Assembly (NCBI GenBank): GCA_003144275.1
Contig: NJBF01000026.1
Span: forward strand, 36,443 to 60,442
DNA length: 24,000 nucleotides
Direction: 5' to 3'
DNA from: Candidatus Heimdallarchaeota archaeon B3_Heim
GTDB taxonomy: Archaea > Asgardarchaeota > Heimdallarchaeia > Hodarchaeales > Hodarchaeaceae
Below, one piece after another: positions 1 to 19,657 of the stretch. Below the pieces are notes generated by a model. It saw only the letters and a list, made by a program, of their open reading frames with translations, was not told the origin of the DNA and made no database searches. Numbering within the stretch: position 1 is the first letter of the stretch; each line of letters opens with the position of its first letter. Both the position numbers and the translations under genes were made by a program.

Positions 1-3000
1 GATGGTAAGGTGAATCTTTGGAATATTACAACAGCATCAAAAATCAAAGAGATGACGGATCATTCAGGTTTTGTATATTCTGTTTCTTTTGACCCAAGCG
101 GAAACCACTTGATTTCTGGGGGAACTGACACAACAGTTAAACTCTGGAACCTCAATCTTGGAAATTTAATAGGAAAAATTGATGGACACACAAATTATAT
201 TAATTCCATTGCTTTCAGCCCTAATGGTAGTTTACTCGCCTCAGGATCTGAGGACACAACCGCAAGAATATGGAACACGACAACTGGAGGTCATTTACTA
301 ACTTTACCAGATCATATTTCCCCAATTGATACTCTTGCATTTAGTCCAAATAGTAGTACATTAGCAACTGGTTCACCGGATAATAATGTTATACTTTGGG
401 ATTTAAATGATAACGGAAATATTGTACATATTCTAAACCATCCTACTGATGTAACATCAGTTGTTTTTCATCCAAATGGTTCCATTTTAGCCTCAAGTTT
501 GATTAACAGTAATATATCTCTTTGGAACATTAATACAGGAGAATTAATTTGCAATTTACCAGGGAATACTGATGAAATCCATTCTTTAACCTTTAATCAA
601 GATGGAAACCACTTAGTTGCTGGATTACGCGATGGTTCAATAAATATATGGGACGTTGAAACACGATCAATATTAACAAGCTTAACCAATCATAGTGATT
701 CAGTTGTTTCTCTTGCTTTTAGTTCTAATGCGCAATATTTTGCTTCTGGTTCTAAAGATTCAAGTATTTTAGTTTGGAATGCTTCTACGTTTGAAATAAT
801 TTACAATTTAACTGGCCATTCTGCTGAAATAAAATCTGTGATATTTAGTCCTGATGGAAGTGCATTAGCTTCGTGTGCCGATGATCAAACTATTCAAGTA
901 TGGGATATGGTAGATGGTAGTCGAATTAGGACAATGAATGATCCAAATAATGCAACTTCAGTTGCTTTTAATCTAAATGGGAATATATTAGCCTCTGGAA
1001 ATCGTCTATCAACAGCAATCAAATTATGGAATTCAAGCATTTCTCTTCTTAGTTTTGACAATTTTTCTTCATCATTAGTCAAATATAATTCAGATTTAAA
1101 TTTTAAAAAAGAACCACAGTGTGAACTGTCTGCAGGATGGAATACAACTTCTCTTACAATCGTACATAATTCTAGCTCATTTAGAACACCATCATCCTTT
1201 GACCCATATAGATTGTTTATCAAAACAAAATTCTTAGGAAGAGAAATCGCAAGAGATTATAATTTATTCATAATATCAACTTTTACTGATTATGATGGAG
1301 ATGGTTTGCCCAATTCATGGGAAAAAATACATTCTACAGATCTCTTAGTGAATGACGCCAGTGATGACATAGACAACGACTATCTTTCAAATTTAGGAGA
1401 GTTTCAAGCTCAAACTGATCCAAACAATAGAGATTCGGACAACGATGGGTGGTTTGATGGATCAGAAGTTTCAAATTCATCAAATCCGCTAGTAAATAAC
1501 TCTGCTCCTTTTATTACATGGCCTGAATCTCTAAAGACATTAAATAATTCAGCTACAAACATTTCTAATCAAAGTTGGCAAGTTAACACAACTAATGCAA
1601 AATCAATTGATATTTGGGTAAATGATAATTATACAGAGACAGTTATTTATCCTTTCATCTGGAATGTAACATTAATCGAAGAATTGAATAATTTAACATA
1701 TATAGCTTATTATGATGTTCCTGTGAATTATAATAAGACTGTATTCTTAATTACATTAGATTCTACTGCACCAACGATTAATCTTGTTAATCCATTGACT
1801 GAAGATGCAGTACTTAATAGTAAAAGCACAATTACTATAAATGTACAAGGATATAATGAACTATTTTCATATTGGGACAACGGGAGCTTTAGTAAAACAG
1901 AAATTCAGACAAAAGTAAACTTTATCTCAAATCATACCTCTCTTAAGCTTTTAAACACAAAAACTGATTCAAATATTAATTTTGAACTACCTGGATCAGA
2001 TGGAGTTCATACACTCTATTTAATGGCAGTTGATGAGGTTGGAAATATTCGATTGGCTGATTTTTCATTCATTACAGATGATACTCCTCCAACTGCCATA
2101 ATCCAAGGAATATCTGAATTTCTATTTATGTCTGGGACGAAAGTCATTAGAGTTATTCCTAGTGATAATAATTCTATTGATCGAGTTGAATTCGAATTAT
2201 CGGGAGACCTTATTACCACTGATAATAATTCACCATATCGGTGGGAATGGAATACAGCTGAAACAGAAGATGGAATTTATTTGATTCGTATTACAGTCTA
2301 CGATGCCGCAGGAAATGCCTACACAAAGACATTTTACGGGATTTTTGTGGTGAATGATCCCATTGAATTTCTCTGTTTCCTTTTCTTAGAGTATTTCCCA
2401 GTGTTTTTATTGATTATCCTTGCAATACTTATCTTAATAATAATATGTAGTATGAGAAAGAAGATTCATATTTTATACACATATGCTAATCCACCAATTA
2501 ACCCACTAGAAATTAAACCAGAGATTGTGTTTAATAAAATAGAGGAAGAACTTAAAGAAACAAAGTATGGAAACAGAATAAAACTCATTCAAAAGGGAGA
2601 AATAACTAAAGATGATCTTTCACCATGGCTAGCTGATCCTAATTTTAAACTCAGTGTTTTTCAATTTTCAGGACATGGAAAAAAGGGATATCTTCAATTT
2701 ATAAACCCAGAGGACACTAATCTTGGGGAAGCAATTCCTGCAGATCATATCACTGAAGCTTTTCGTTTACATAAAAATAAAATCAAAATCGTAGTTTTAC
2801 GAGCATGCTCTTCTTTAAAGATTGCTGAGAGTCTAATGGAACATATTGATATTATAATTGGAATGTCCAAAGAAGTTCAAGATGCTGCTGCAGCAAAATT
2901 CACAATTGGATTCTATAAGTTCTTAGCAGCTGGCAAGAACGTGCAAGAAGCATACGAAAAAGGATTATCAGATATGGAAATTTCAAAAGGGCACGGTCGT

Positions 3001-3087
3001 GATATTGTTAAGTTAGTACATCGTGAAGAAGTAAAACCTGGGAAAGTAAAACTCTTTCGATGGCGGTTTTTACTATGTTTTTTATAA
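1..3087 (+). CDS. 5'-truncated large transmembrane protein: WD40 beta-propeller + TSP3-like Ca-binding repeats + Ig-like modules + 1 TM helix + C-terminal CHAT/caspase-like domain
   Basis: The frame is open to nt 1 (DGKVNLWN is the end of a WD repeat), so the true start lies upstream and the 'M' at nt 10 is a GTG artefact. There are 8 complete ~42-aa repeats ending (L/I/V)W(N/D), nt ~25-1045. DxDxDG(L/W)..(W)E-type motifs (DYDGDGLPNSWE, DSDNDGWFDGSE) lie at nt ~1288-1470. Modules starting DSTAPT / DDTPPT and ending D(E/A)xGN (nt ~1750-2340) are typical of Ig-like surface domains. A hydrophobic helix (nt ~2370-2450) is followed by RKK. The last ~200 aa carry FQFSGHG (His codon 2674-2676) and VVLRACSS (Cys codon 2806-2808), then IIIGMSKEVQDAAAAKFTIGFYKFLAAG, matching the CHAT/caspase His-Cys pattern. 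Confidence 0.85.
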   Translation, partial: DGKVNLWNITTASKIKEMTDHSGFVYSVSFDPSGNHLISGGTDTTVKLWNLNLGNLIGKIDGHTNYINSIAFSPNGSLLASGSEDTTARIWNTTTGGHLLTLPDHISPIDTLAFSPNSSTLATGSPDNNVILWDLNDNGNIVHILNHPTDVTSVVFHPNGSILASSLINSNISLWNINTGELICNLPGNTDEIHSLTFNQDGNHLVAGLRDGSINIWDVETRSILTSLTNHSDSVVSLAFSSNAQYFASGSKDSSILVWNASTFEIIYNLTGHSAEIKSVIFSPDGSALASCADDQTIQVWDMVDGSRIRTMNDPNNATSVAFNLNGNILASGNRLSTAIKLWNSSISLLSFDNFSSSLVKYNSDLNFKKEPQCELSAGWNTTSLTIVHNSSSFRTPSSFDPYRLFIKTKFLGREIARDYNLFIISTFTDYDGDGLPNSWEKIHSTDLLVNDASDDIDNDYLSNLGEFQAQTDPNNRDSDNDGWFDGSEVSNSSNPLVNNSAPFITWPESLKTLNNSATNISNQSWQVNTTNAKSIDIWVNDNYTETVIYPFIWNVTLIEELNNLTYIAYYDVPVNYNKTVFLITLDSTAPTINLVNPLTEDAVLNSKSTITINVQGYNELFSYWDNGSFSKTEIQTKVNFISNHTSLKLLNTKTDSNINFELPGSDGVHTLYLMAVDEVGNIRLADFSFITDDTPPTAIIQGISEFLFMSGTKVIRVIPSDNNSIDRVEFELSGDLITTDNNSPYRWEWNTAETEDGIYLIRITVYDAAGNAYTKTFYGIFVVNDPIEFLCFLFLEYFPVFLLIILAILILIIICSMRKKIHILYTYANPPINPLEIKPEIVFNKIEEELKETKYGNRIKLIQKGEITKDDLSPWLADPNFKLSVFQFSGHGKKGYLQFINPEDTNLGEAIPADHITEAFRLHKNKIKIVVLRACSSLKIAESLMEHIDIIIGMSKEVQDAAAAKFTIGFYKFLAAGKNVQEAYEKGLSDMEISKGHGRDIVKLVHREEVKPGKVKLFRWRFLLCFL

Positions 3088-3134
3088 GAAGACTATTTTA
3101 CTTAAAATGAAGAAAAAGAAAGGTGAAGAAATAA

Positions 3135-3533
3135 ATGGAAGTTGAAATGAATATAATTTTTGAAGAAAAAATTGAAACAAGTAAATTAAATACTTTTATT
3201 AAGGAATTAAACAATGAAACCATGAAAATAGATGAAGATCTAGGAGAAATGAGAACATTCAAAGAAACAAGTCAAGCAATGCCTCTTGATCCCATAATAA
3301 AACAATTACTTATCGCTGTTTTAGCACCTATTTTTACCGACTACATTCGAGAAAAGAGTCCTGTTGCAAAAAAATATGCCAAAAAAATGTTTAAGAAAGT
3401 CTTTGAAAAGATGAAAAAATTAACAAACAAATCAAAGATTGTCATCAAAAAGGCAGGAGAAGAGATAATGACTCTACTCGAAGGCACTGATGAAGAATTT
3501 GATAAAGCAGTGAGAATACTCTCACTAGAATAA
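3135..3533 (+). CDS. small hypothetical protein (132 aa); acidic N-terminus, hydrophobic centre, Lys-rich C-terminal half
   Basis: The ATG sits 8 nt after AGGTGA (3121-3126) and 47 nt after the stop of the WD40-CHAT gene, on the same strand. No family recognised. Confidence 0.6.
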   Translation: MEVEMNIIFEEKIETSKLNTFIKELNNETMKIDEDLGEMRTFKETSQAMPLDPIIKQLLIAVLAPIFTDYIREKSPVAKKYAKKMFKKVFEKMKKLTNKSKIVIKKAGEEIMTLLEGTDEEFDKAVRILSLE

Positions 3534-3540
3534 AATATTC

Positions 3541-3553
3541 CTTTTTTATTTCT
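3541..3553 (+). terminator. oligo-T tract (CTTTTTTATTTCT) directly after the 3135-3533 ORF
   Basis: A T6 run lies 8 nt after the stop codon. Archaeal terminators are typically oligo-T stretches. Confidence 0.35.
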
Positions 3554-3618
3554 GAGAATTAATTAATAAAGATATTGAAGACCTTAAAAAAATTAGAGAT
3601 GGATCAATCTAAAATAAT

Positions 3619-3642
3619 GTCGTAAAATAATATTTTTACGAC
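3619..3642. repeat. perfect 9-bp inverted repeat / hairpin GTCGTAAAA-taatat-TTTTACGAC
   Basis: Read directly from the sequence. It lies in the 387-bp non-coding spacer between the small ORF and the ATPase gene. Confidence 0.5.
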
Positions 3643-3920
3643 AATCACTTTCCAAGTGCTTGTCTCATCTATAATCGTGAAAAAGAGGGAGGTGTGAGAT
3701 CTTCCGCGGTAGATTATCAAAATACGGTAACACTTCAGCAAATACCCATTCAGCTTTGATGATGGAGTCACAAAAAATAATCCTCCTTTAACGAAGAGCT
3801 CCTCTCCGATACAAATTTGGGTGTTTATTAATCATTGTGTATGTTTTTTCTTATGATGCCACCTAGAACTGAACCGACTAATAAATAAGTCCTCAACTAT
3901 TCATAAATGAGATTCAAGCC

Positions 3921-6059
3921 TTGCAGACTAGTTCCACATCATTTCATTTCGATTTTATTCCTGATAAGATAGATCAATCAAGTATTAAGCTTCTTAGAAA
4001 TGTATCTGATTCTTTTACTCTAGAATACGCGATTTTTGAACCCAAAACGGTTCATATTTGCATGCATGTTAAACCTAGAAGACGTTTTTTCAGACGTTCC
4101 TCACATTCTGCAACTGCTACACTCCAGCAATTCATTATTTCTCTCGGACTTCATGCCGACTTTCTCAAACCAAGTGAAGATCCGATCCCTAGACTTCTTA
4201 GTATGATCGAGCCCCAGTTTTTTCTAGACCCAGAAGAACCCTGTCTTCATAGCGGTGGGTTGCTGGGTCTAGAAATTGACTCTTTACCTTCTTTATCAAC
4301 GAAAGATGGATTCATTAATGGGTTACTTGAAATAATCACTGATGATCCAACTTTCACCCTTTTACAGATTCCATTCAAATCACAGAAAATTCCGAAAGAA
4401 TTTCAATCCTTAGAAACTGCTGATTATAGAAACCAAATTAGATTTAATATCCAACAAGGAAAGGTTGAACGTCGTTCACATCCTTTCAGTATGAATCTTA
4501 TGGAAGAAGCTGGTTGTTTTGCTTTTTCAGTTCATCTTTTGATGGTTGAGCGTTCAGAAGAACAGCTACTAGCCAAATTAGAACGAGTCTCTGTATTTCT
4601 AAAAGCCCATGGAATTAAGACTCGGAAATATCCTTCCTTTTTACGTCCGTTTAAACGTTTTAAATCACATTTCAAGAGCCGATCTATCCATCCAGCCTTG
4701 GTTACTGATGGATTCACGTTAATGAATTATCTATCGTTACCAACCAATCAATATTCACTACATGGGTATCAAATAGTCCCTCACAAGGAGAATTATAATA
4801 TGTCTTCCACTTTATCACATCTTGATACAGAAAATACCCTTAGAATTGGAACCCCAATTCTGAGTGGGAAAACAACTGATTCTCCTATGCTTCTTTCAGG
4901 TAAAGATCTGTCTCGTCATATGGCGGTATTTGGGATGACAGGAGAAGGGAAAAGTCGGTTTGTCTTTAACCTAATTCAAGAATTTCACAAAAATAAAGTG
5001 AATTTCTTAATTATAGACCCCAAAGGTGAATATATCCATCCAGTACAAACATTTTGTCAAGATTTTTTTTATATTAAACCAGGTTCTGATTCCTTTCCTT
5101 GGGGGATTAACCTTTTTGAAGTTCCTTTGGATCCACAAGGTCAGCCTCTGATCTCTCCAGAAGATCATATTCAATTCGTTGTTTCATTGCTCGAAAATGT
5201 GGTTGATGAAGCTAATTCTTTATCTCCCCAGATGAGACGCTTAATCCAATTAGCTACCATTCAAACCATTAAAGAGAAAGGCGATTTCAAATTATTCTTA
5301 CAATGCTTAAATAAGCCTAATGCCCTTGGACTCAAAGGAGCCTATTTAGAAAATACATCGGCCGGTACCGTTAACCGTATCATGAAGCTGTTATTTGGGA
5401 ATACTGGAAGATGTTTTACTGTGAGCTCAACCACGTTTGATATTTCGCAATTTCTCTCTCACAATATTATTTTGGATTTATCGACATTTGAAGCAATGGA
5501 AGACATAAATGGCCGACAATTACTTCTGGAGGTTATATTCCAGTATCTCTATTACTATATCCGGAAATTTCGTCCCCCCTTCAAAGAAGAAAAACTTCCC
5601 CAGAATGTCATAATCCTTGATGAAATCAACAAACTCCTACCTGCACCCACCTATAGACAATCAACACCAAAGTCAATAATTGGCCGCGGGCCTTGGACCT
5701 TGCGTGCATATGATGTATCAATGGTGTTTATAGGAACCGACCCAATAATAGATCTTCCTATGTTGACGAATGCGGGTGTATTTGCAATGTTTTATTCGAA
5801 GTTCGATTCATATAAAATCGCAGATTTTTTGGGTATTTCTAAGGGCACGTATGATCAATTGAAACCCCTACTTAAGGCCAAACCTGATGAAAGAAGATGT
5901 TTACTTTCGGTTAATAAAAATGTGACCTTGTTGAAAACAGATCAATTTGAGCTAAGTTCTTCGAACTCCTCTATCTTTGAATTGTTGAAAGAAAATCCTA
6001 TTCAGATGCATCTCAGAGAAAGTTATACCCAGAACTATTTTCAGCCAATCTTTGAGTAA
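3921..6059 (+). CDS. FtsK/HerA-superfamily P-loop ATPase (DUF87/VirB4-like) with ~330-aa uncharacterised N-terminal region
   Basis: Walker A is AVFGMTGEGKSRF (nt 4932-4955), followed by NFLIIDPKGEY, as in HerA/DUF87 proteins. Walker B is NVIILDEINKLLP (nt 5607-5624). The start is uncertain: the track start is TTG, the frame stays open further upstream, and the first ATG is ~48 codons in. Confidence 0.8.
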   Translation: MQTSSTSFHFDFIPDKIDQSSIKLLRNVSDSFTLEYAIFEPKTVHICMHVKPRRRFFRRSSHSATATLQQFIISLGLHADFLKPSEDPIPRLLSMIEPQFFLDPEEPCLHSGGLLGLEIDSLPSLSTKDGFINGLLEIITDDPTFTLLQIPFKSQKIPKEFQSLETADYRNQIRFNIQQGKVERRSHPFSMNLMEEAGCFAFSVHLLMVERSEEQLLAKLERVSVFLKAHGIKTRKYPSFLRPFKRFKSHFKSRSIHPALVTDGFTLMNYLSLPTNQYSLHGYQIVPHKENYNMSSTLSHLDTENTLRIGTPILSGKTTDSPMLLSGKDLSRHMAVFGMTGEGKSRFVFNLIQEFHKNKVNFLIIDPKGEYIHPVQTFCQDFFYIKPGSDSFPWGINLFEVPLDPQGQPLISPEDHIQFVVSLLENVVDEANSLSPQMRRLIQLATIQTIKEKGDFKLFLQCLNKPNALGLKGAYLENTSAGTVNRIMKLLFGNTGRCFTVSSTTFDISQFLSHNIILDLSTFEAMEDINGRQLLLEVIFQYLYYYIRKFRPPFKEEKLPQNVIILDEINKLLPAPTYRQSTPKSIIGRGPWTLRAYDVSMVFIGTDPIIDLPMLTNAGVFAMFYSKFDSYKIADFLGISKGTYDQLKPLLKAKPDERRCLLSVNKNVTLLKTDQFELSSSNSSIFELLKENPIQMHLRESYTQNYFQPIFE

Positions 6060-6079
6060 TTGTACGAGTTTTTAGGATT

Positions 6080-7204
6080 TCATACCATGACGGCAGCAAT
6101 TGTTGGAGGGTCATCAGATGAAATTGTTATCAGCCCTTTCGTTACTAGATCTCCAAGCATTTGTTTTAATTTTAATGGATGAGCCCCTACAGACATAGCC
6201 AATGTTGAAAGGTCTAATACTCCTCCTAAATTTAATAGTATAAGTATTGACGCATATAATGGATGAGTAGAAAGGAGTCTTTGAGTATAATCAAGGAGAA
6301 CATTTTTCTCAAGACGTTCCGTAATTGCTTTTGACAATTCAGCTTGTGTCTCTAGTAGTTCTTCTTCAGCGATCTTTGTAGCTTCTTCTAATCGATCTAC
6401 TGTAATTTTGTGTTGTCGTGTCGCATCCTCTAGTCGTGTGTTTTGTGTTTCTAGTTTCTTTTTCATTTCCTCAAGATCTATTTCCATCTCTCGACGAATT
6501 TCTTTGGTACGACTTTGAATTCCGTCTTCGAGCATACGCTGGTAGTAGTTCTCTTGAATCTGATAAGTTTCTGCAACAGAGGCTAATGCTTCTTGAATAT
6601 CCTTTTCGTGAATTAGTTCTTTTTCTTTTAATTTTTCTATTAACGCCTGATTCATTTCTAACTCATTGATCAATTCCTTAGACTGAGTTTGGTGGACTTC
6701 AAGCTCTTTCTGTTGATTTTCAAGCTGTGATTGTACACGCTTCATGTCAGCCTCTAATGCGGTGATCTGATCAGTTTTTTCAGCCAGTTGAGTGAAACTG
6801 TCAGCCTTTTCACTTTCAAGTTGCTTTAGCTCTGTATTTTTTTCTTTTATCTGAGTTTTAAATTCCAGATTACTTTCTCGTAATTGTACCAGTTCATTCT
6901 CCTGTTCTAAGGAAGCTTCATCTTGAATGATGATCGCGCTTTCAGATAATACTTCTCTTATCCGTCCTAGTGATTTGATCGTAATGCGGGTTAATTCGCT
7001 ATCTACAACACGAGCAGTATCTTTGCGTACGGTTTTAATCAAAGTGTCAATATCTTGATAACTGAAGTGTGGTAATCCTTGGGCAATAAGTGTACTCTTC
7101 GTACCTGATACCACTACGCCAATCTCTTGCTGAGCAACTTTTCGGTCTTTAGCCATCTCGTTTATAAATTCTAAACCAAATTCTTTCAGCGATTTTTGTG
7201 TCAT
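6080..7204 (-). CDS. coiled-coil protein with small N-terminal alpha/beta domain and C-terminal winged-helix-like domain
   Basis: ATG start. About 200 aa of heptad-like E/K/Q/L-rich sequence in the centre. The C-terminus (LDLSTLAMSVGAHPLKLKQMLGDLVTKGLITISSD) looks like a wHTH. A TATA-like TTTATATAT sits ~65 nt upstream (7269-7281 on the plus strand). Confidence 0.75.
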   Translation of the reverse strand: MTQKSLKEFGLEFINEMAKDRKVAQQEIGVVVSGTKSTLIAQGLPHFSYQDIDTLIKTVRKDTARVVDSELTRITIKSLGRIREVLSESAIIIQDEASLEQENELVQLRESNLEFKTQIKEKNTELKQLESEKADSFTQLAEKTDQITALEADMKRVQSQLENQQKELEVHQTQSKELINELEMNQALIEKLKEKELIHEKDIQEALASVAETYQIQENYYQRMLEDGIQSRTKEIRREMEIDLEEMKKKLETQNTRLEDATRQHKITVDRLEEATKIAEEELLETQAELSKAITERLEKNVLLDYTQRLLSTHPLYASILILLNLGGVLDLSTLAMSVGAHPLKLKQMLGDLVTKGLITISSDDPPTIAAVMV

Positions 7205-7342
7205 TTATTGTTCCCTCAAATGACCTTTTACTTTTCGGTGGATAATCAAATGAGTATTATATTTGTGCCAATATATAAAGATGTAGGAGGAGCTTTCTTT
7301 CGATTTTTCCTCTCGGTAAAATATAACAATCCAAATTTTTTC

Positions 7343-7783
7343 TTAAGATCCCCAGAGATTTTGCAATTCTGGTAAAATGGTTACTGTAAGCAGTGTTATT
7401 ATTCCTTGAATCAGGATCGCCGTAGCTAATGCAAAGAAGATACTCAACAACGTACCCAGCAAATAATATTCTGCAAAATGGCGTTCTTTAAGTTGTTCAA
7501 ATCGGGCCATTGATTTGGCAACGAATACAAAGGAAATCGCCCCGAATTCTCCCATTAATGCCAAAGTCAGGATTATTGCTCTTTCTACCTGTCCAATCTT
7601 TTTACCTGCTCCCGAAAGACCCATTGGTTTCTCGGTTGATTTGGGATCCTTATAGGGAGATAAGAAATGGCCAACGAAAAAGGCTCCCCCAAAAATCGTC
7701 CATAGATACGCGCATAGATAAAGCAAAGCAAGTATTATAAATAATTCCAGTTGAAACAAATGGTATCCTCCTTGGATCAGCAC
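7343..7783 (-). CDS. small multi-pass membrane protein (3-4 TM), probable membrane partner of SatD (SatC/DUF3307-like, from memory)
   Basis: Hydrophobic segments are present (LFIILALLYLCAYLWTIFGGAFFVGHFL; AIILTLALMGEFGAISFVFV; YYLLGTLLSIFFALATAILIQGIITLLTVTIL). Its start overlaps the stop of the upstream SatD-like gene by 7 nt. Confidence 0.7.
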   Translation of the reverse strand: MLIQGGYHLFQLELFIILALLYLCAYLWTIFGGAFFVGHFLSPYKDPKSTEKPMGLSGAGKKIGQVERAIILTLALMGEFGAISFVFVAKSMARFEQLKERHFAEYYLLGTLLSIFFALATAILIQGIITLLTVTILPELQNLWGS

Positions 7784-8412
7784 TTTGGGTATGATAATTT
7801 ATTTAATGTTTCGATTGCTAAAGAGATTTCCTCCCAATGAGCACTTTTGAGAATGTTTGAAACTGCCTGTTTTGTAATGTTTTCTTCTTTTTCTGTTATA
7901 ATTTTTTTTCCGATCTTTTCATAGGTTAAACCCTGTTTCCGAAGGTGAATAACCTCTTTTTGTCTATTTGTCCATTGCAACTTTAAGGTGGTTAAGAGAG
8001 TTAGTAAAGAATTTGTCAATTGATCAAATGAATCATTTTCTGACTGTATCCAAGCTGTTCGACGATTATCACTTGCAATCTTCAAAGCTGCTCGTGATCT
8101 ATGAAAAGCAAGACCATCCATTTCCAGAGACTTTCTAGAAAATTTGGTACTAATCGTCCCGATTCCTAAACCACATCGAAATTTAAATGAGAGATCTTCT
8201 TCTAATCGTTCAAAAATTGAATAAAAATCTGTTAATTCCTTTAAAACTCCTTGAAATGAATCCCCCCAGACAATAATGAAGGGAGACATTATTTTTTTTG
8301 AATAATCAATATTTATTTGTTTAATTACCGTTTTCAACTCTTCTTGAACTTCAAGTCTATTGGTGACTTCTTTTGAATGTACAATATCGCAAGTCATAAC
8401 GAAATACATCAT
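7777..8412 (-). CDS. satD: SatD-family protein (cyclase/palm-like N-domain + C-terminal HTH)
   Basis: The N-terminus YFVMTCDIVHSK...IIVWGDSFQGVL...FRCGLGIGTI...MDGLAFHRSRAAL matches my recollection of the SatD pattern (GDIv.Sr ... GDeFQGll ... fRfGiGiG ... dGpaf..Ar.Al). The C-terminus NRQKEVIHLRKQGLTYEKIGKKI...ITKQAVSNILKSA is HTH-like. GGTGA lies 7 nt before the ATG. Confidence 0.75.
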   Translation of the reverse strand: MMYFVMTCDIVHSKEVTNRLEVQEELKTVIKQINIDYSKKIMSPFIIVWGDSFQGVLKELTDFYSIFERLEEDLSFKFRCGLGIGTISTKFSRKSLEMDGLAFHRSRAALKIASDNRRTAWIQSENDSFDQLTNSLLTLLTTLKLQWTNRQKEVIHLRKQGLTYEKIGKKIITEKEENITKQAVSNILKSAHWEEISLAIETLNKLSYPKC

Positions 8413-8469
8413 TGTTGTTTCACCACTTTACATCTTTTTGATACTGGTGAATTTAATCCCATTTATCAA

Positions 8470-8581
8470 GTCAACTGTTTTCAATTGACAAATAGTTAGT
8501 CAACTCTTTAGTATTGAGTCAACTTAAAAAGCTTGTCATTCGTCCTGTCAATAGTTTTCGATTGACAAGGTTTTTGTCAAT
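8470..8581. promoter_or_regulatory. dense array of 8 TTGAC/GTCAA-core motifs upstream of the SatD-like gene
   Basis: AGTCAACT occurs 3 times (cores at 8470-8475, 8499-8504, 8518-8523). ATTGACA(A)/TTGTCAAT-type sites lie at 8485-8490, 8533-8538 (degenerate), 8546-8551, 8562-8568 and 8574-8580. These include the perfect palindrome ATTGACAA-ggttt-TTGTCAAT (8561-8581). Spacing is ~12-19 bp. Confidence 0.55.
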
Positions 8582-8586
8582 ACGGA

Positions 8587-9669
8587 TTAGCGAGTATTGA
8601 GCGGGGTATGACAAACCTCACAGGCAGCTTCTTCCCCCTCGAGGATTTGATTTGTATTATTACAATTGTGACAGTGCACAAACACTTTTTTTTCCGTGAA
8701 AAAACCAAAAGTACCTTTACCAGCCAATATAGTCTTATCTGCTTGTTCTTTCATCTTTTTGAACAAGGGATTCGATAAATCCTCCAGACTGGTGATAACA
8801 CTTTGTCGATCGGAATGTTGTTGTTTGAAAGCAGTTTTTTCTTGAAAGTATGCTTTACGTTCCTCAGGTGTCATCTTTTCAAGTTGTTGAAGCTCTTTCA
8901 ATCGAAGAGTAAACTTGTTTCGTTGTTCTAGCAACATAGAATTGAGCGTTTGCGTGGAAAATTCTGATAATTCCTCTAAAGTCAGCTCGGAAAAGTTAAC
9001 ATGAGAAATATTTGATAAGGGGGTACGAATGTTTGTAGGAGAACTTATTGTTCCTGGAGGTGGTGGTGGGGGAGGATTGACCGTATTTGACCTTAAAGGG
9101 GAGGATGTGGGAAAACTTCTACTTGCTATTTGCTTGAGATTCGATGTAATGCTATCTTGGACTGTTCCACTGATCTCCTCGATTACAGTCGATAAGTACT
9201 CCTTCGAGGTAAATTCTTGTTGTTTATTTTCTAGAGATTTCAATTGTGCTTCTAATTCGCCGAGACGAGACATTAATTCAAGTAATTGCTGATCATTTTT
9301 GGATTCTTTGAGCTCTTTCTCAACATTACTCAATTCTTCCTGGTTATGACAAATATTACAGATACCGTTTATTAATTCGTCTTTTAAGGTTCTTCTACCA
9401 CAGTTTTGGCAAATTGTGAACATTATTCTAAGTTCAATAAGAGCAGTCTGAATTCGTTTATCATTCGAATTCAATTTGGCTTTGTTCTGATCCGACTCTT
9501 TTGCAATTACAGGTTTATGAATGAATATGGAGTCTCTTATTGACCAGTCTTTGTCATAAATCGTTCCTAGTTGTTGGAGAGCTTTTTCTATGTTGTTGAA
9601 AGGGTTCTTCTTCCCCCTCAGAGAGGAATGGGATTCAAGAGCAGTAGGTATTTTAGTTCCTTTGGACAT
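8587..9669 (-). CDS. hypothetical protein with two CxxC...CxxC zinc ribbons, a coiled coil and a Pro7 tract
   Basis: CQNCG...CNICH lies at nt ~9352-9411 and CHNCN...CEVCH at the C-terminus (nt ~8600-8680). A coiled-coil segment LELMSRLGELEAQLKSLENKQQE is present. Seven consecutive Pro codons lie at 9055-9075. Confidence 0.75.
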   Translation of the reverse strand: MSKGTKIPTALESHSSLRGKKNPFNNIEKALQQLGTIYDKDWSIRDSIFIHKPVIAKESDQNKAKLNSNDKRIQTALIELRIMFTICQNCGRRTLKDELINGICNICHNQEELSNVEKELKESKNDQQLLELMSRLGELEAQLKSLENKQQEFTSKEYLSTVIEEISGTVQDSITSNLKQIASRSFPTSSPLRSNTVNPPPPPPPGTISSPTNIRTPLSNISHVNFSELTLEELSEFSTQTLNSMLLEQRNKFTLRLKELQQLEKMTPEERKAYFQEKTAFKQQHSDRQSVITSLEDLSNPLFKKMKEQADKTILAGKGTFGFFTEKKVFVHCHNCNNTNQILEGEEAACEVCHTPLNTR

Positions 9670-9685
9670 GATTTAATTCCTAATC

Positions 9686-10342
9686 CTAGTCAAGAGAACT
9701 AGCCTGTTCAAGAAATAATTGCGCTACAGCTCGTTCGTTCGTGTCTACGTCTGAATTGCTTTCCTTGATTACAACTAGCGCAATTCTTGCCAGTAAATCA
9801 AAATTTGGGTCTAAAATTTGCTGTAATCCAGTTTTAAGAAATTGAGCAGAAGTCATTTCACGTTCGAATGCAGTATTTGTAATTCGATCCAACTCCGTGT
9901 AAATCACATCGGCTATTTGTGGATCAATCTTTGTTGATAATTCTCTCCCGTCTGGAGCATTCTGCTCGAAATAAACCTCAGAGTCAATTAAGAATCGCTG
10001 AATCATACCCATGGTATCGTAAATTAAAATTGACTCTTGTTTGACTATATAATGGTCATAGAATGCTTTCCAGTAGGGTTTATGTGGGATACCTATGTAG
10101 CGTTGACGTTGGCCTTTAGGTATAGAGATATTTACAACCGCAATTGCTTGTTTCTCTACTAATCGTGCAATTGCCCCATCAATTTTCCCCCTACTCCAAT
10201 TTAAACAAAGTACCAAGTCATTTACTGTTACGGGACGATCGAATTTGGAGAGTTTGCGGAGCATTTCTTGATCTGTTTCTTCAGCATTTCCTCGAGGCAC
10301 GATTTTATAACACCCTTTTACGTTAGAACAGACTTTTTCCAA
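9686..10342 (-). CDS. winged-helix DNA-binding protein (putative transcription regulator)
   Basis: VTVNDLVLCLNWSRGKIDGAIARLVEKQAIAVV is a wHTH-like segment. It lies 16 nt upstream of the zinc-ribbon gene on the same strand. The start is uncertain: TTG at 10342 or ATG at 10264. Confidence 0.65.
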   Translation of the reverse strand: MEKVCSNVKGCYKIVPRGNAEETDQEMLRKLSKFDRPVTVNDLVLCLNWSRGKIDGAIARLVEKQAIAVVNISIPKGQRQRYIGIPHKPYWKAFYDHYIVKQESILIYDTMGMIQRFLIDSEVYFEQNAPDGRELSTKIDPQIADVIYTELDRITNTAFEREMTSAQFLKTGLQQILDPNFDLLARIALVVIKESNSDVDTNERAVAQLFLEQASSLD

Positions 10343-10812
10343 ATTGAAGGATATTTCGTTCGATCATTCCTGATATTAGCATTCAGACAAGTCTAAATTT
10401 ATATGGTTTTAACATCCCAATTTTCATCTTTGGAGATGCAGATTTTCAGGTAAATTTGATATCTACTTGACTATATAACTTTATTGCTAGATTGAGGATT
10501 TAAGTCGGACATTTTGTTAAAAAAAGAGATGTTAAGCGCGCCTATTACTATATAGATGATATTCAAATCACCTCTTTCGGCCTTTTCTATCCCTTAATTT
10601 AGTTAATGAAATAATAGTCGTGTCTATAATATTTTTAATTCATTTATAAGTATAAAAGTTCCTGTATCCTTTAAAGAAGGAAGCTAATTTTATTAGGCCT
10701 GACGATTAGCATTTGCATTTAATGAATAGAAATATTTAGAATCACTAGTACCCTTGTCTCTTCAGTATATTATGTACTAGAAAGAGCTAGTTAACAATTG
10801 GAAGGAAAATAA

Positions 10813-12669
10813 ATGGAAACCACCCTAGATGGTTGCAAGATTGTCCTTTTGGACTTTTTTCAGAAGAATAAATCTAAACTCCTTAAAGCACTCAAATCTG
10901 ACGAAGTTCAGACCTTTCTCGAGCCATTAAGCGATATGACCATAATATTTTCAGATATACAAAAGATCACTGAGTTAAAAAAATATCTTAAAACTCTAGA
11001 AATACCAGAAGACGATTTAAAAGACATTTTACAATTCTTTGATCGTCCTTTTCAATCCTCATTCTCTTGGGGATTCCAGGATAAAGAATTCGTGTTCATA
11101 CGCCTGGAAGAAACAACTAAATTGTTTCTTAAGAAAAATCGTAAGGGTTTAACAGGATTGATTATTCATGAAGTGTTACATGGTGTACAACGCCAGCGAG
11201 GCTTAGAAATTCGTTTACACGACTCATTAGACTTCAGCTTGGATTTCTTTACACAACTGGCTGAGATAATTCCTCCAGAAAAATACAATCGCACACAAAT
11301 AATGTCATTTCTGAAACAAATATCCCAACTTGCTTTATTTGCGTTAAAAGACATATTTGTTAATGTTGAATTAATTAAGCGAGGAATGGCTGAGTGGTTA
11401 ATAATTTTCTATCGTGATGAGCTGGGATTTGGTGAAGATCTTGAAATTAAGCCTCCCCAGTACGAAACTGAATTCGAAAAAGGCGTCGTTAAGGTAAAGG
11501 ATTTGGATTCATTTGCTACAGCGTTTACATATACGTTATCACTTATCCCAATTTGGTTACCTTTCATGGTTTTGGAAACTGACTCAAAGGACTATAAACC
11601 GTCCCGTGAGTTGAAACATTTAATTTTTGATAAGTATTACGTTAATCCTTCATTCATTACACGGGAGATGTGGCATATAGAGAACATATTTCTGGCCAGC
11701 TTCTCCTTTTCCAAGAGTTTTCATCGTAAGTGGTATGGTGCAATCTTTAACTTAGCTCTTGAACATCTGCTTGGCGAAGATTTTCTGTTTTATCATCTCT
11801 TCAAGGCTACTGAGCTCTTAGAAGAGCTTTATACAACCCAAGAATCTGAAGAAAGAAAATCTATGGCCATGGTTCCAATTTTGAAAGCTGCGTATGTCTA
11901 TAGACGAGAACAACTCGTAGGTATCCAAAAAAGGAACATTGAAGAATTAAACTCTAAGATGCAACAATATGAAATAGGGGAGGAGGAAATTATAGAGCTT
12001 GAAGAAAGTATTGATGATTCTTCTGAACATACTACTTCTCCAGAGCATATGTTTGAAAACCTCATGAAACTTTCAATTATGATTGTAACTCGAGATTTAC
12101 GAGTAAATGTGTTTTCTGGTGAAAATTTTAAATTTAAGATCTTTAGTCGCACGATACTCTCTCTTCTCCAAGCGATTAATTATTTAGAAGATGAATGTGA
12201 CGATCAATATTATCATACAGTTCGCTTAGGTGTGAAACGACTTCTCCGAACAGATAATCTGTTTAAGCGTAAAAGATGGGCATTATTACTCGAGAATTTT
12301 GCTCAAAATACGATTTTTCAGGGAGAAACTGAACCCTCACAACTAGAAATTGATGAATTAATTTATAATTATGACTTTTTTGAAATTCCATTGACTAATC
12401 TCTTCATCAACCTTGGAGTATCTTTTATTCAGAATATAAAAACAGTCATGAAAACAGTCCCTGTAAATGATGATGAATTTCCTTTTTTAACGGCTCAACT
12501 TATCAATATTCAAATTGGAGGGATTGAACTTCCAATAGAAGATGAAGAACATCTGAACTTGATGTATGTAAGCAGTCTTATTGCTACTAAAGGGATTCCA
12601 TATCGAATGATTCAAATCATGCTTACAGCTTTTCTACAAACTAGAGTCCCAAAGGAAGAAACAGATTAG
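10813..12669 (+). CDS. large hypothetical protein with an HExxH motif (possible zinc metallopeptidase)
   Basis: ATG start with GGAAGG upstream. GLIIHEVLHGV has the HEVLH codons at 11167-11181. No other recognisable domain in 618 aa. An acidic stretch EIGEEEIIELEESIDDSSE is present. Confidence 0.7.
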   Translation: METTLDGCKIVLLDFFQKNKSKLLKALKSDEVQTFLEPLSDMTIIFSDIQKITELKKYLKTLEIPEDDLKDILQFFDRPFQSSFSWGFQDKEFVFIRLEETTKLFLKKNRKGLTGLIIHEVLHGVQRQRGLEIRLHDSLDFSLDFFTQLAEIIPPEKYNRTQIMSFLKQISQLALFALKDIFVNVELIKRGMAEWLIIFYRDELGFGEDLEIKPPQYETEFEKGVVKVKDLDSFATAFTYTLSLIPIWLPFMVLETDSKDYKPSRELKHLIFDKYYVNPSFITREMWHIENIFLASFSFSKSFHRKWYGAIFNLALEHLLGEDFLFYHLFKATELLEELYTTQESEERKSMAMVPILKAAYVYRREQLVGIQKRNIEELNSKMQQYEIGEEEIIELEESIDDSSEHTTSPEHMFENLMKLSIMIVTRDLRVNVFSGENFKFKIFSRTILSLLQAINYLEDECDDQYYHTVRLGVKRLLRTDNLFKRKRWALLLENFAQNTIFQGETEPSQLEIDELIYNYDFFEIPLTNLFINLGVSFIQNIKTVMKTVPVNDDEFPFLTAQLINIQIGGIELPIEDEEHLNLMYVSSLIATKGIPYRMIQIMLTAFLQTRVPKEETD

Positions 12670-12782
12670 TTCGAAGACCCATAAATCATCAGATTGATTT
12701 CAATTTGTAAGGGATCCTCTTGAAAAGATAATAGTATTTTATTGAAATTCATTCCAAAAGTATGCAAAAGAAAGGGAGAAAG

Positions 12783-12949
12783 CGGCACCAGCAGGAGTTT
12801 CAGTCAAAAACTAAATGTTCTTAACCTTTGAACCTGCGACCACTCGGTGTCTGTGTCTCTTTCTCAATGAAAGATGTCAATTAACAGCCGAACGCTCTAC
12901 CTCTTCAGAGATAAAGACTGAATCTCTATCCTAACTGAGCTATGATGCC
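12783..12949 (-). tRNA. tRNA-Asn (GUU) with three introns (D-arm ~29 nt, anticodon loop 37/38 33 nt, T-loop ~59/60 30 nt)
   Basis: Manual fold of the reverse complement. Acceptor GGCATCA/TGGTGCC with G73. D stem GCTC...GAGC. Anticodon stem TTCGG/CCGAG with loop CTGTTAA. T stem GCAGG/CCTGC with T-loop TTCAAA[30 nt]T. Exons sum to 75 nt of the 167-nt gene. Confidence 0.8.
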
Positions 12950-12965
12950 TACTCTACTAAGAATG

Positions 12966-13071
12966 TGGGCCTGGGGGGATTTGAACCCACGAACCATCCG
13001 GTTATGAGCCGGACGCTCTAACCATTTCAGAGGGTTATGAGGTTATATGCCCTAAACTGAGCTACAGGCCC
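12966..13071 (-). tRNA. tRNA-Met or tRNA-Ile2 (CAU) with ~30-nt intron in the D-loop
   Basis: Acceptor GGGCCTG/CAGGCCC with A73. D stem GCTC...GAGC enclosing 40 nt instead of ~9-10. Anticodon stem TCCGG/CCGGA with loop CTCATAA. T arm GTGGG-TTCAAAT-CCCCC has one mismatch, and the variable region is 6 nt. It lies 16 nt upstream of tRNA-Asn on the same strand. Confidence 0.75.
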
Positions 13072-13113
13072 AATAGATGTTATACGGTAGTGTTACTTCG
13101 TTATTTAAGTGAC

Positions 13114-13128
13114 TTCAGATAATCTGAA
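13114..13128 (-). terminator. palindrome TTCAGAT-A-ATCTGAA immediately after the uL6 stop codon
   Basis: Perfect 7-bp arms read directly from the sequence. Its function (terminator or processing site before the tRNA tandem) is inferred only. Confidence 0.3.
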
Positions 13129-13130
13129 AT

Positions 13131-13682
13131 TTATGTGTTTATGACGTAAAGTCCATCCTGGAAGACAGTTGGATCTTTACTTCGTCGTCCTCGTAATCGT
13201 GAAGATTCAGCTAAGCGTGCTGCAACTTGTGAAACCTTTTCTTTATCGATTCCAGTTAGAGTTACGATATCCGCTTTGACTTTGATATCAACAGAAGGAT
13301 CATACGGAACCTTAATAGGATCTCTTCTTCCATAGAGATTCTTTATGAGGATTACAGATTTTTGGACTTCTACAGTAGCAGGAAAATGAGAAGTAATGAC
13401 TTGAACCTGATACGTGTACAATTCATTTACGCCTTTGATCATATTATTTAAATGGCCCGCGATGGTTCCTACCAAAGCTGCCTCTCTTTTCTTACCAAAG
13501 TGACTGCTAATAACAAATTTATTATCATCGTAAGAAATTTTGACACTTATTCTAGTAAAAGATTTCTCTATATTTCCTTTGGGTCCTTCTATTTTAACTG
13601 TGAATCCCCCACGAATTTGTTTCATATCAACCTTGATATTTTTAGGGACTTCAACGGTTTTTTCAATAACAAAGTGTGTCAT
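13131..13682 (-). CDS. rpl6: 50S ribosomal protein uL6 (L6P)
   Basis: 183 aa with the typical archaeal L6 sequence pattern (VEVPKNIKVDM...FTVKIEGPKG...) and two repeated L6 domains. It lies 19 nt downstream of uS8. Confidence 0.93.
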   Translation of the reverse strand: MTHFVIEKTVEVPKNIKVDMKQIRGGFTVKIEGPKGNIEKSFTRISVKISYDDNKFVISSHFGKKREAALVGTIAGHLNNMIKGVNELYTYQVQVITSHFPATVEVQKSVILIKNLYGRRDPIKVPYDPSVDIKVKADIVTLTGIDKEKVSQVAARLAESSRLRGRRSKDPTVFQDGLYVINT

Positions 13683-13701
13683 CGGTATTTTCTCTCCTTA
13701 A

Positions 13702-14088
13702 TTAAAATACGTAAGCTAATAATCGTCCACCAAGATTTTTCTCTCCAGCTTCGTGATGGGACATGACTCCTTCGGAAGTAGAAACTACAAGAATTCCCAT
13801 ATCTCGTGCAGGAAGGAATCTTTTCTCCCATTCTACATAGTCTTGCACTTTAACTGGATATCTTGGTTTTATAACACCAATTTTGGTAATTCGGCCTAAG
13901 AGCTGAACAGAGATAATCCATAAATCTTCCATAACTTCGAATTCGCCAATGGTTCCATATTTTTGGATCACACGCAGAACATTTGCAATGATTCTGCTCG
14001 CAGGTCTAATTGTAACTTCTTTACGACCAAGAATTTCTGCGTTTGCTATTGTGGACATCGCATTAGCTAAGGGGTCATGCATAACCAT
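13702..14088 (-). CDS. rps8: 30S ribosomal protein uS8 (S8P)
   Basis: Starts [18 protein letters not shown] and ends ...GGRLLAYVF, which are classic S8 N- and C-terminal signatures. Confidence 0.93.
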
Positions 14089-14305
14089 AATTTTCTTCTC
14101 TTTTGTGGTTTATTCAAATGAAAATGGCTAGTAAAGCCGAATTAAATGAGTAGAAAGGCCGACATTGCCTTACCATCCATCTATACCGTCCATGAACCCA
14201 CTTGTTAAAGGTTATCGTGGAGTAAGCAGTTTTCATTTTGTAGTGGTGCATTGCCTGAGCTTTTTTCTTCGACACAGGGGAATTTTAATCAATAGAAAAT
14301 GAGGA

Positions 14306-14821
14306 TTACTTTTGTTTTCTTTTAATTTTGGCAATTGAACCAATTGTTGTAGCTCGGGGTATTATATCATCCACGCTGGAGCTTTCTTCAGATATATCGG
14401 TTTTAAGCTCTATGTCGAGTTCTCGCTCAATCTTGGAAACTACTCTATCAGTAGGTATCACTTTTTCCGCTTCAATTCGGGCTAATAATGTCTCTTTTTC
14501 CTTAATTAATCCTGCAAATTGAGCGCGCCCATAACCATGCTCTTTACGAGCTTCTTGGATCAAGTGACCATAGCCATCAACAAGAATTTTATCATGTAGG
14601 AAGTCCTTCTTCGGAGGTATTCTTGTCACAGGTTTTGTTTTAGCCTTGGATTGAACTTGATGTTTCTTGTACCTTGGTCGTTGGTCAGGTTTTGGACGTT
14701 TTACTACAGGTTTTCCAAATTTCGCGCATTTTGAGCATGCATAAAGCTCTACATGATCGATTTCAACAAGTGTAATAAAACCTTCAGACCCACACATTTC
14801 ACACTGCTGTATTTTACTCAA
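14306..14821 (-). CDS. mbf1: archaeal multiprotein bridging factor 1 (aMBF1): N-terminal zinc ribbon + C-terminal Cro/C1-type HTH
   Basis: CEMCG...CSKCAKFG is the zinc ribbon. IQEARKEHGYGRAQFAGLIKEKETLLARIE is HTH_3-like. The TTG start at 14821 is needed to retain the first Cys, because the first ATG falls inside the CxxC. Confidence 0.88.
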   Translation of the reverse strand: MSKIQQCEMCGSEGFITLVEIDHVELYACSKCAKFGKPVVKRPKPDQRPRYKKHQVQSKAKTKPVTRIPPKKDFLHDKILVDGYGHLIQEARKEHGYGRAQFAGLIKEKETLLARIEAEKVIPTDRVVSKIERELDIELKTDISEESSSVDDIIPRATTIGSIAKIKRKQK

Positions 14822-15246
14822 AAATAATACTTCCTCAACATATAAAACTAATTCCAGTATTCATTATAACATCTTAGATAAAAATATTAAAATCCAACGA
14901 AGTGGGTATTTCTTAATTTATCAGTAAATCGGCATTCATTTCCGATTGTGTTATCATTCCGCCTTGAGACTGATTTCCTCCTAGTTCTGAATCATTTAGC
15001 GAGCTGAGAGAATATTTTTTTTTATAAATATATGTAATAACCCCTTTCATCAAAAACTACAATTAAACATCAAGAAAAGTAATCACCTTATGCAACCAGT
15101 ATGAAAAGAAAAATAAAGGATGATTAAGTCTGTAGCTATCAGTGGAAAAAACCTCTTTCAATCCTTTGGGTCGAGCAATTATATGCTTTATAACTTTAGG
15201 AAGGATTTGAAGGAGTTTGCTTTCAATCACTAAAGTAGGTATTATT

Positions 15247-19617: not shown

Positions 19618-19657
19618 TTTTTGTTTGTTCTATATAATAAGAGAAGCCTGGATATTC

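Follow-up and report, generated by a model that had tools for sequence, protein, structure and literature searches.

A putative transmembrane receptor-protease of a Heimdallarchaeon with a WD40/TSP3/Ig-like ectodomain and a minimal CHAT domain

The stretch of DNA analysed here, which we call the window, comprises 24,000 nucleotides (nt) of the 67-kb contig NJBF01000026.1 (positions 36,443 to 60,442, forward strand) from Candidatus Heimdallarchaeota archaeon B3_Heim, and it opens inside the gene of a putative receptor-protease. This gene is followed by an open reading frame (ORF) of 132 amino acids (aa) and then by a DUF87/HerA gene, the three products being PWI47580.1, PWI47581.1 and PWI47582.1, respectively. 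Within the window, the receptor-protease ORF runs in frame 1 from nt 1 to a stop codon at 3085-3087 and encodes 1,028 aa. These are the last 1,028 aa of PWI47580.1, a protein of 1,385 aa annotated as "hypothetical protein", whose gene starts 1,071 nt upstream of the window. The full-length sequence (P0080) was obtained as a protein from an exhaustive search of 1.84 billion representatives. In order, PWI47580.1 contains a signal-peptide-like N-terminus, 14 WD40 blades, TSP3 repeats, Ig-like modules, one transmembrane (TM) helix and a C-terminal domain of ~190 aa. The features of the gene inside the window are as follows.

1-1035, + strand: the last 8 of the 14 WD40 blades (Pfam PF00400, 8 stretches, E 1.9e-67, aa 1-345)
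1036-1287, + strand: sequon-rich linker without a Pfam family match (sequons at aa 354, 381 and 390)
1288-1467, + strand: TSP3-type acidic DxDxDG-like repeats, presumed to bind Ca2+ (PF18884 TSP3_bac, 27.2 bits, cut-off 25)
1504-2358, + strand: about three Ig-like modules forming a stalk (Big_7, 39.9 bits, and Big_13, 34.1 bits, each above its cut-off)
2365-2448, + strand: single TM helix (aa 789-816; Kyte-Doolittle 19-residue peak 3.27)
2455-3021, + strand: minimal CHAT (caspase-fold) protease domain (PF12770, homology to 8tl0, AlphaFold (AF2) fold)
3022-3087, + strand: C-terminal tail with a [VL]xPxx[VI][KR][LI]F motif, a hydrophobic WRFLLCFL and the stop codon (low model confidence, pLDDT)

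The ectodomain is built from repeated modules. A hidden Markov model (HMM) made from the protein's own blades finds 14 WD40 units in the full-length protein, a count sufficient for two seven-bladed propellers. The original prediction for this locus, made from the letters of the window, had named eight or more WD40 repeats, TSP3-like DxDxDG repeats, at least two Ig-like modules and one hydrophobic helix. All of these are recovered, with 8 Pfam WD40 stretches in the window, TSP3_bac above its cut-off at the D-rich repeats, matches above cut-off to both Big_7 and Big_13, and a single strong hydrophobic segment. Each Ig-like module terminates in a ...D..GN...F.F..D.tpP... motif, and the modules are collinear with those of a protein from a Kariarchaeaceae archaeon (P0176).

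The C-terminal domain begins 4 residues past the helix, and the 212 residues that follow the helix include the motifs FSGHG and LRACSS. These had been proposed as the His and Cys motifs of a CHAT/caspase-fold peptidase, and both residues are in place, the His at nt 2674-2676 (H1249) and the Cys at nt 2806-2808 (C1293). The assignment is backed alike by the sequence, by the family profile and by the predicted fold. The sole real match in the Protein Data Bank (PDB) is 8tl0, the activated SAVED-CHAT filament (phmmer E 1.3e-8, domain aa 10-188), which a profile of the family matches at E 2.2e-33. The His and Cys fall on residues 355 and 402 of the 8tl0 chain, equivalent to H375 and C422 in the numbering of the paper on that structure (a 20-residue offset), and double mutation of H375 and C422 to alanine abolishes cleavage by SAVED-CHAT. 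An AF2 model of the CHAT domain (pLDDT 86, pTM 0.84) likewise retrieves 8tl0 first in Foldseek (E 2.9e-13, TM-score 0.77), followed by caspase-4, caspase-11, caspase-3, MALT1 and gingipain (E 1e-5 to 3e-4), in keeping with the fold first proposed. The minimal CHAT family is large, with 9,301 relatives at E<=1e-3 in the exhaustive search. All 11 members of alignment A1 match PF12770 (best E 4.6e-11), and ten homologues found through a word index all carry PF12770, fused to TIR, GUN4 or EAD11; FSGHG and the Cys are invariant in the alignment of these ten. Homologues also keep the catalytic pair on a wider scale, a point on which the original prediction had asked for a test, with the His retained in 148 and the Cys in 142 of the 150 nearest relatives. 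These comparisons argue strongly that the C-terminal domain adopts a CHAT/caspase fold, and the protease of PWI47580.1 is probably competent.

The two sides of the helix differ in character. PWI47580.1 starts with MREDILFKITKEGKNK-TILILVLFIIAG-NSTF, a basic n-region followed by a 12-residue hydrophobic core, the shape of which is signal-peptide-like and would fit a signal peptide or a signal anchor. The part of the protein upstream of the window was inspected for a signal peptide versus a STAND NTPase, and it holds the signal-peptide-like N-terminus and no STAND NTPase; the full-length protein contains no NTPase domain. The helix is flanked by acidic residues on the outer side (NDPIEF) and basic residues on the inner side (MRKK, with RKK towards CHAT), and the count of Lys and Arg within 10 aa is 0 before and 3 after the helix. 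In the window part, all 28 N-x-S/T sequons precede the helix and the tail has none, which makes the count of the original prediction exact; the zero in the tail is uninformative by itself, 0.6 being expected. The full-length ectodomain has 36 sequons in 1,115 aa (3.23 per 100 aa), a density 7.5-fold higher than that of the 16 other ORFs of the window (0.43 per 100 aa). When the ectodomain is shuffled with its composition preserved, 23.1 +/- 4.1 sequons result, and 36 is reached in 4 of 2,000 cases. Across the helix, Lys accounts for 3% of residues outside versus 11.7% inside, Glu for 3.7% versus 8.8%, and Asn, Ser and Thr together for 32% versus 12%. TSP3 and bacterial Ig domains typically occur outside the cytoplasm. 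The sequon density of the ectodomain and the RKK after the helix place the CHAT domain in the cytoplasm. With the signal-like N-terminus, the composition, the flank charges and the extracytoplasmic character of the TSP3 and Ig modules, they lead us to infer strongly that PWI47580.1 is a type I single-pass protein with its ectodomain outside and CHAT inside, the topology that had been put forward from the window. The ectodomain is probably heavily N-glycosylated.

Membrane tethering recurs among CHAT proteins. Predicted TM segments occur in 22 of the 150 nearest CHAT relatives (~15%), with the following layouts.

P0201 and P0157 (metagenomes): CHAT-TM-PKD
P0139 (Nitrososphaera): CHAT-TM-Ig
P0190: CHAT-TM-TPR
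P0176 (Kariarchaeaceae archaeon, another Heimdall lineage): Ig-TM-CHAT

Most of the membrane-tethered minimal CHAT relatives found have the reverse order, CHAT-TM-ectodomain. In P0176, P0139, P0201 and P0157, as in PWI47580.1, a single helix links a minimal CHAT to domains of the Ig-like or PKD type. P0176 and PWI47580.1 are collinear over the Ig modules, the helix and CHAT up to its C-terminus (28% identity over 474 aa, E 7e-45); in both, 4 residues separate helix and CHAT, and the ectodomain of P0176 is sequon-rich (3.57 per 100 aa). The N-terminus of P0176 is cut off by the end of its contig, and the missing part may or may not have included WD40 repeats. A TM segment and WD40 occur together in none of the 150 nearest relatives, the only other top match with WD40 being P0175, which has no TM segment. 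The claim of the original prediction that this is an unusual architecture was therefore overstated, given the 22 tethered relatives, the several PKD or Ig-like ectodomains held across one helix from CHAT and a cyanobacterial precedent described below. Rather, PWI47580.1 is one strain-specific member of a recurrent class of membrane-tethered CHAT proteins, and the first case found in which a double WD40 propeller outside the cell, on a TSP3/Ig stalk, is joined to a C-terminal CHAT, here in an Asgard archaeon.

A neighbour-joining tree of CHAT domains groups PWI47580.1 (P0080) with P0176 and P0170; the grouping is crude and supportive only, with long branches and with raw distances that do not rank the three nearest. 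The [VL]xPxx[VI][KR][LI]F tail motif is common to the same three proteins. The tree grouping and the common motif together suggest an Asgard-associated CHAT clade fused to different sensors. P0170 (914 aa) joins a Ras-like small GTPase through a long helical region to a CHAT of this clade, and it may be an Asgard GTPase-gated protease. Across the family as a whole, CHAT is fused to TIR, EAD11, STAND-like ATPase, GTPase, TPR and WD40 modules. In two of three loci examined, a Peptidase_C14 gene adjoins the gene of a membrane-tethered CHAT, namely L009 (a Nitrososphaera metagenome-assembled genome (MAG), 3984-6899, layout CHAT-TM-Ig) and the P0201 locus. The latter, a metagenome locus with the CHAT-TM-PKD layout, carries a cluster of four caspase-fold protease genes. 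Such neighbours suggest membrane-initiated protease cascades in which the two proteases form an initiator-executioner pair. Taxonomy is mostly lacking for the nearest CHAT relatives, and the organisms named among them are the cyanobacterium Hassallia, Nitrososphaera and Kariarchaeaceae, none of them eukaryotic. Pattern scans of genome and metagenome contigs found no relatives; of the second scans, that from the Ig part (alignment A4) returned only Ig-like proteins of Thermoplasmata, and that from alignment A5 returned no match. We found nothing relevant in the literature on Asgard archaea together with CHAT or caspases.

We propose that PWI47580.1 is a type I receptor-protease whose CHAT domain is activated by ligand-driven clustering, a reading that we hold to be probable, if by no means certain. 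The signal sequence would export about 1,100 aa, consisting of the two WD40 propellers, the Ca-binding TSP3 repeats and the Ig-like stalk. One helix would span the membrane, and the minimal CHAT protease would sit directly on its inner face. An external ligand that is multivalent, for example a virus, a partner cell or a damaged envelope, would bind to the propellers and thereby cluster the receptors. Clustered CHAT domains would then activate by oligomerisation, as in the cA3-driven filaments of SAVED-CHAT; lateral clustering could serve as an equivalent input because CHAT is held directly against the membrane. Active CHAT would cleave a target in the cytoplasm, for which the adjoining 132-aa protein and a caspase-type protease from another locus are candidates. 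Clustering by a ligand, the choice of substrate and a role in defence or cell fate are suggested by analogy only.

The closest analogy is SAVED-CHAT of Haliangium ochraceum (PDB 8tl0), which belongs to a type III-B CRISPR / CBASS-derived cascade in which oligomerisation switches on the protease and the protease cleaves a second caspase. The two proteins have the same minimal CHAT of ~190 aa, with the best match in both sequence and fold and with His and Cys in register, and PWI47580.1 would likewise be a sensor-fused initiator protease activated by oligomerisation, the latter being the demonstrated feature of SAVED-CHAT. They differ in the sensor, which is a cytoplasmic cA3-binding SAVED domain in SAVED-CHAT and a WD40/Ig ectodomain, predicted to be extracellular, across a helix in PWI47580.1. 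The latter has no SAVED domain, and its match to the PADLOC SAVED_CHAT model covers the CHAT part only (E 0.009). In addition, the 24-kb window holds no cyclase, CRISPR locus or PCaspase gene, and the identity is only ~24%.

Two further systems share the use of a membrane. Cyanobacterial orthocaspases of p20-TM-WD40 layout have been predicted in silico, with extracellular WD40, and are proposed to be membrane initiators (PMC7475262). As in PWI47580.1, the caspase fold and WD40 lie on opposite sides of a TM helix (PMC7475262). In the orthocaspases, however, the protease is an N-terminal Peptidase_C14 p20, whereas PWI47580.1 has a C-terminal CHAT and, in the comparison with Peptidase_C14 that had been suggested, no C14 match at E<=1, is archaeal and sequon-rich, and carries a TSP3/Ig stalk; both layouts are predicted only. 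DdvA of Myxococcus xanthus is a transmembrane TPR-CHAT anti-sigma factor with a periplasmic CHAT (PMC11506125). Like PWI47580.1, it is a single-pass membrane protein with a CHAT that has the His-Cys pair, and transduction of an external signal by proteolysis has been proposed for it (PMC11506125). The CHAT of DdvA is large (TPR-CHAT, of the separase/craspase type), possibly self-cleaving and periplasmic, and is paired with a cytoplasmic zinc anti-sigma (ZAS) domain (PMC11506125), whereas that of PWI47580.1 is minimal and predicted to be cytoplasmic, with no TPR, ZAS or sigma factor. Finally, there is a functional analogy to metazoan death receptors and caspase-8, where a ligand clusters a type I receptor and induced proximity activates an initiator of the caspase fold. 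In PWI47580.1, receptor and protease would be one polypeptide, which lacks death, DED and TNFR domains; the analogy implies no homology.

The receptor gene is followed by these features.

3122-3126, + strand: Shine-Dalgarno (SD)-like GGTGA, 8 nt upstream of the ATG of the small ORF (sequence reading)
3135-3533, + strand: orphan 132-aa ORF, PWI47581.1 (coding score; no homologue)
3542-3551, + strand: oligo-T tract after the small ORF (sequence reading)

The small ORF begins 47 nt past the receptor stop. Its in-frame coding score of +0.45 bits/codon is the best in the window, all other frames being negative, and it is probably a real gene. In the encoded protein, both termini are acidic (net -6 for the N-terminal one); between them lie a hydrophobic helix (aa 51-66) and, at aa 76-96, an amphipathic helix rich in Lys (net +10, muH 0.62). 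The single-sequence AF2 model of this protein is all-helical at low confidence (pLDDT 60). The small ORF has no significant match in Pfam, NCBIfam or PADLOC, and with it no gasdermin-family gene was found adjoining the receptor gene. A tblastn comparison with nine fetched loci, the collinear Ig-TM-CHAT locus included, gave noise only. The original prediction had coupled this ORF to the receptor through its spacing and a good SD-like site, and had looked to related loci for its conservation. Spacing and SD-like site are as described; the coupling is unproven, with neither a homologue nor a syntenic counterpart, and the ORF is absent from every fetched locus. Since adjacency and a shared strain-specific segment are all that link the two genes, the small ORF is a possible but unproven partner of the receptor-protease. 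Oligo-T tracts terminate archaeal transcription, and the tract at 3542-3551 is likely the end of the transcription unit.

The strain-specific segment is defined by comparison with four relatives (loci L001, L003, L004 and L005).

3612-3643, no strand: right-hand boundary of the strain-specific segment (blastn against L001, alignment A3, palindrome)

By blastn, L001 3936-16378 aligns to window 3616-16060 at 96.3% identity. Homology to this closest strain starts at nt 3616, 83 nt after the small ORF and beside a conserved palindrome, which makes window 1-3615 a strain-specific segment that holds just the receptor gene and the small ORF. The DUF87/HerA gene starts 387 nt past the small ORF, and the block from HerA to the proteasome ATPase PAN is syntenic in all four relatives, where dNK-CYTH-MazG lies upstream of HerA. 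HerA is thus conserved without the CHAT gene and stands outside the unit. The suggestion that the HerA/FtsK-type ATPase might belong to the system does not hold up, and a conserved HerA association was rejected, the four syntenic relatives having HerA without the CHAT gene or the small ORF.

In place of the CHAT gene pair, L001 (545-3928) and L003 (4068-7514) carry genes for a Zeta-toxin/AAA_33 kinase, an APH-type kinase, a deoxynucleoside kinase, CYTH and MazG, a conserved run of nucleotide-metabolism or toxin-like character. The palindrome at 3618-3643 has a 10-bp stem (TGTCGTAAAA...TTTTACGACA), is kept downstream of MazG in L001 and L004, and could be a terminator or a recombination hotspot. 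At ~3855-3893, just upstream of the TTG start of HerA, a conserved ATGATGCCACCTAGAACTGAACCGACTAATAAATAA is kept in L001 and L003-L005. This stretch can be read as a mini-ORF of 11 codons (MMPPRTEPTNK*), and it may encode a leader peptide or act as a regulatory element.

Several observations count against the ligand-clustered receptor-protease that we propose. The closest relative of PWI47580.1 is only 42% identical, with nothing higher among the 1.84 billion representatives, and both the CHAT gene and the small ORF are absent from L001, L003, L004 and L005. For a singleton gene that is missing from four syntenic relatives, conservation cannot back function. Caspases, cyclases, CRISPR and other known defence partners are absent from the 24-kb window, and the sole candidate partner, the small ORF, is an orphan for which a search of 5.8 billion proteins found no homologue. 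Just ahead of the receptor stop codon, a T6 run (3078-3083) could stop transcription before the small ORF, so that co-transcription is uncertain. In the comparison with Pfam CHAT that had been suggested, the family members match PF12770, whereas the C-terminal domain itself scores 18.0 bits (E 0.002) against a cut-off of 24. Next to the catalytic Cys, the near-invariant Asn at Cys-2 is Arg in PWI47580.1 and the near-invariant Gln at Cys+5 is Ile, the latter change being shared by P0176 and P0170; altered specificity or lowered activity is a possible result. Finally, the signal peptide, the TM helix and the glycosylation are deduced from plain hydropathy and motif counts, not from dedicated predictors.

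Some of these points would suit a different protein, namely a surface adhesin or envelope protein whose CHAT is constitutive, acts in cis or is a non-catalytic scaffold, with no ligand gating and no role in defence or death. Such a CHAT might trim its own tail or local membrane-proximal proteins. WD40, TSP3 and Ig domains are modules of general use in binding or structure, a conserved partner gene is lacking, the residues beside the Cys are substituted, and Ig-like relatives without CHAT exist in Thermoplasmata. However, the His-Cys pair is kept in PWI47580.1 and in nearly all of the 150 nearest relatives, the nearest homologue to have been characterised is a protease under tight gating, and CHAT is repeatedly fused to sensor or effector modules in this family. 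We therefore regard the adhesin as unlikely, while giving it real weight.

A bolder form of the receptor-protease model is, in our estimate, distinctly improbable. Here, PWI47580.1 would be a single-polypeptide archaeal "extrinsic pathway" in which a ligand clusters the ectodomain, CHAT initiates, and the small ORF or an unlinked executioner caspase is activated, leading to surface-triggered suicide or dormancy. CHAT would trim the acidic ends of the 132-aa protein and so free its Lys-rich amphipathic helix to attack the membrane. As a related point, the Arg at Cys-2 occupies what we take to be the position of the S1-pocket Gln in the QACRG motif of caspases, and it could move the P1 preference towards acidic residues.

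The opposite topology, with WD40 in the cytoplasm and CHAT outside, has a precedent in DdvA, a single-pass protein with its CHAT outside the membrane (PMC11506125), and would agree with the usual cytoplasmic location of WD40 repeats. Against it stand the signal-peptide-like N-terminus, the 36 sequons of the N-terminal part with none in the tail, a WD40 side poor in Lys and Glu and rich in Asn, Ser and Thr, the positive charges on the CHAT side, and TSP3 and bacterial Ig modules that are typically extracytoplasmic; nor is there an anti-sigma or other cytoplasmic signalling domain. We consider this orientation very improbable. No more credence is due to a multi-gene system with the downstream HerA/FtsK-type ATPase, for instance a HerA-based defence module. 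HerA-family ATPases do occur in several defence systems, the ATPase lies 0.4 kb downstream on the same strand, and PADLOC gives weak HerA matches (E 6e-9). Yet genomes of Heimdall, Hodarchaeales and Thorarchaeota share the ATPase at 47-98% identity, four relatives keep its downstream neighbours (from the coiled-coil gene to PAN) with dNK-CYTH-MazG upstream, the DNA of the 96%-identical strain is homologous only from nt 3616 onwards, and an oligo-T tract and a 387-nt spacer separate the two units. An assembly or annotation artefact, or a decaying pseudogene, might be suspected of a singleton gene from a MAG that sits exactly at a synteny break, and can nearly be dismissed given 1,385 uninterrupted codons, an in-frame coding signal over ectodomain and tail, and an independent Kariarchaeaceae contig with the same Ig-helix-CHAT junction.

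The remainder of the window is of a different nature. The block at 3921-16440 is strictly syntenic in five Heimdall-type genomes (the window, L001, L003, L004 and L005) and contains, in order, genes for the DUF87/HerA-like ATPase, a 374-aa coiled-coil protein, a small membrane protein, SatD, a 360-aa Cys-cluster/Pro-rich protein, proteins of 218 and 618 aa, L6, S8, an HTH protein and PAN; most of these genes have no family assignment. In addition to the archaeal ribosomal proteins L6 and S8 and to PAN, the window encodes an RNA polymerase subunit. At 12966-13071 on the minus strand, Rfam identifies a 106-nt tRNA (53.8 bits) that ARAGORN missed, probably an intron-containing archaeal tRNA. At 18338-21523, local GC falls to 0.31, and a DDE transposase (PF01609, E 5e-12) precedes two Asn/Lys-rich ORFs (290 and 341 aa) that match no family; this is probably another mobile or variable patch.

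To our knowledge, caspase-fold proteases of prokaryotes are known almost only as cytoplasmic effectors with cytoplasmic sensors, among them cyclic nucleotides, CRISPR complexes and STAND NTPases. PWI47580.1 is an accessory, strain-specific gene product, and its identified CHAT relatives are prokaryotic (cyanobacterial and archaeal); our reading implies no ancestry of the eukaryotic pathway. A role for PWI47580.1 in defence or cell death would follow by analogy only. The small domain of ~190 aa, with a solved homologue, is tractable for forced-dimerisation experiments. PWI47580.1 and the dozen or so tethered relatives point to a second, putative input route to these proteases, in which sensing at the cell surface is wired across a helix to CHAT. 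If this is correct, the receptor-protease would be the simplest known form of receptor-driven activation of an initiator caspase, in the archaeal lineage closest to eukaryotes.

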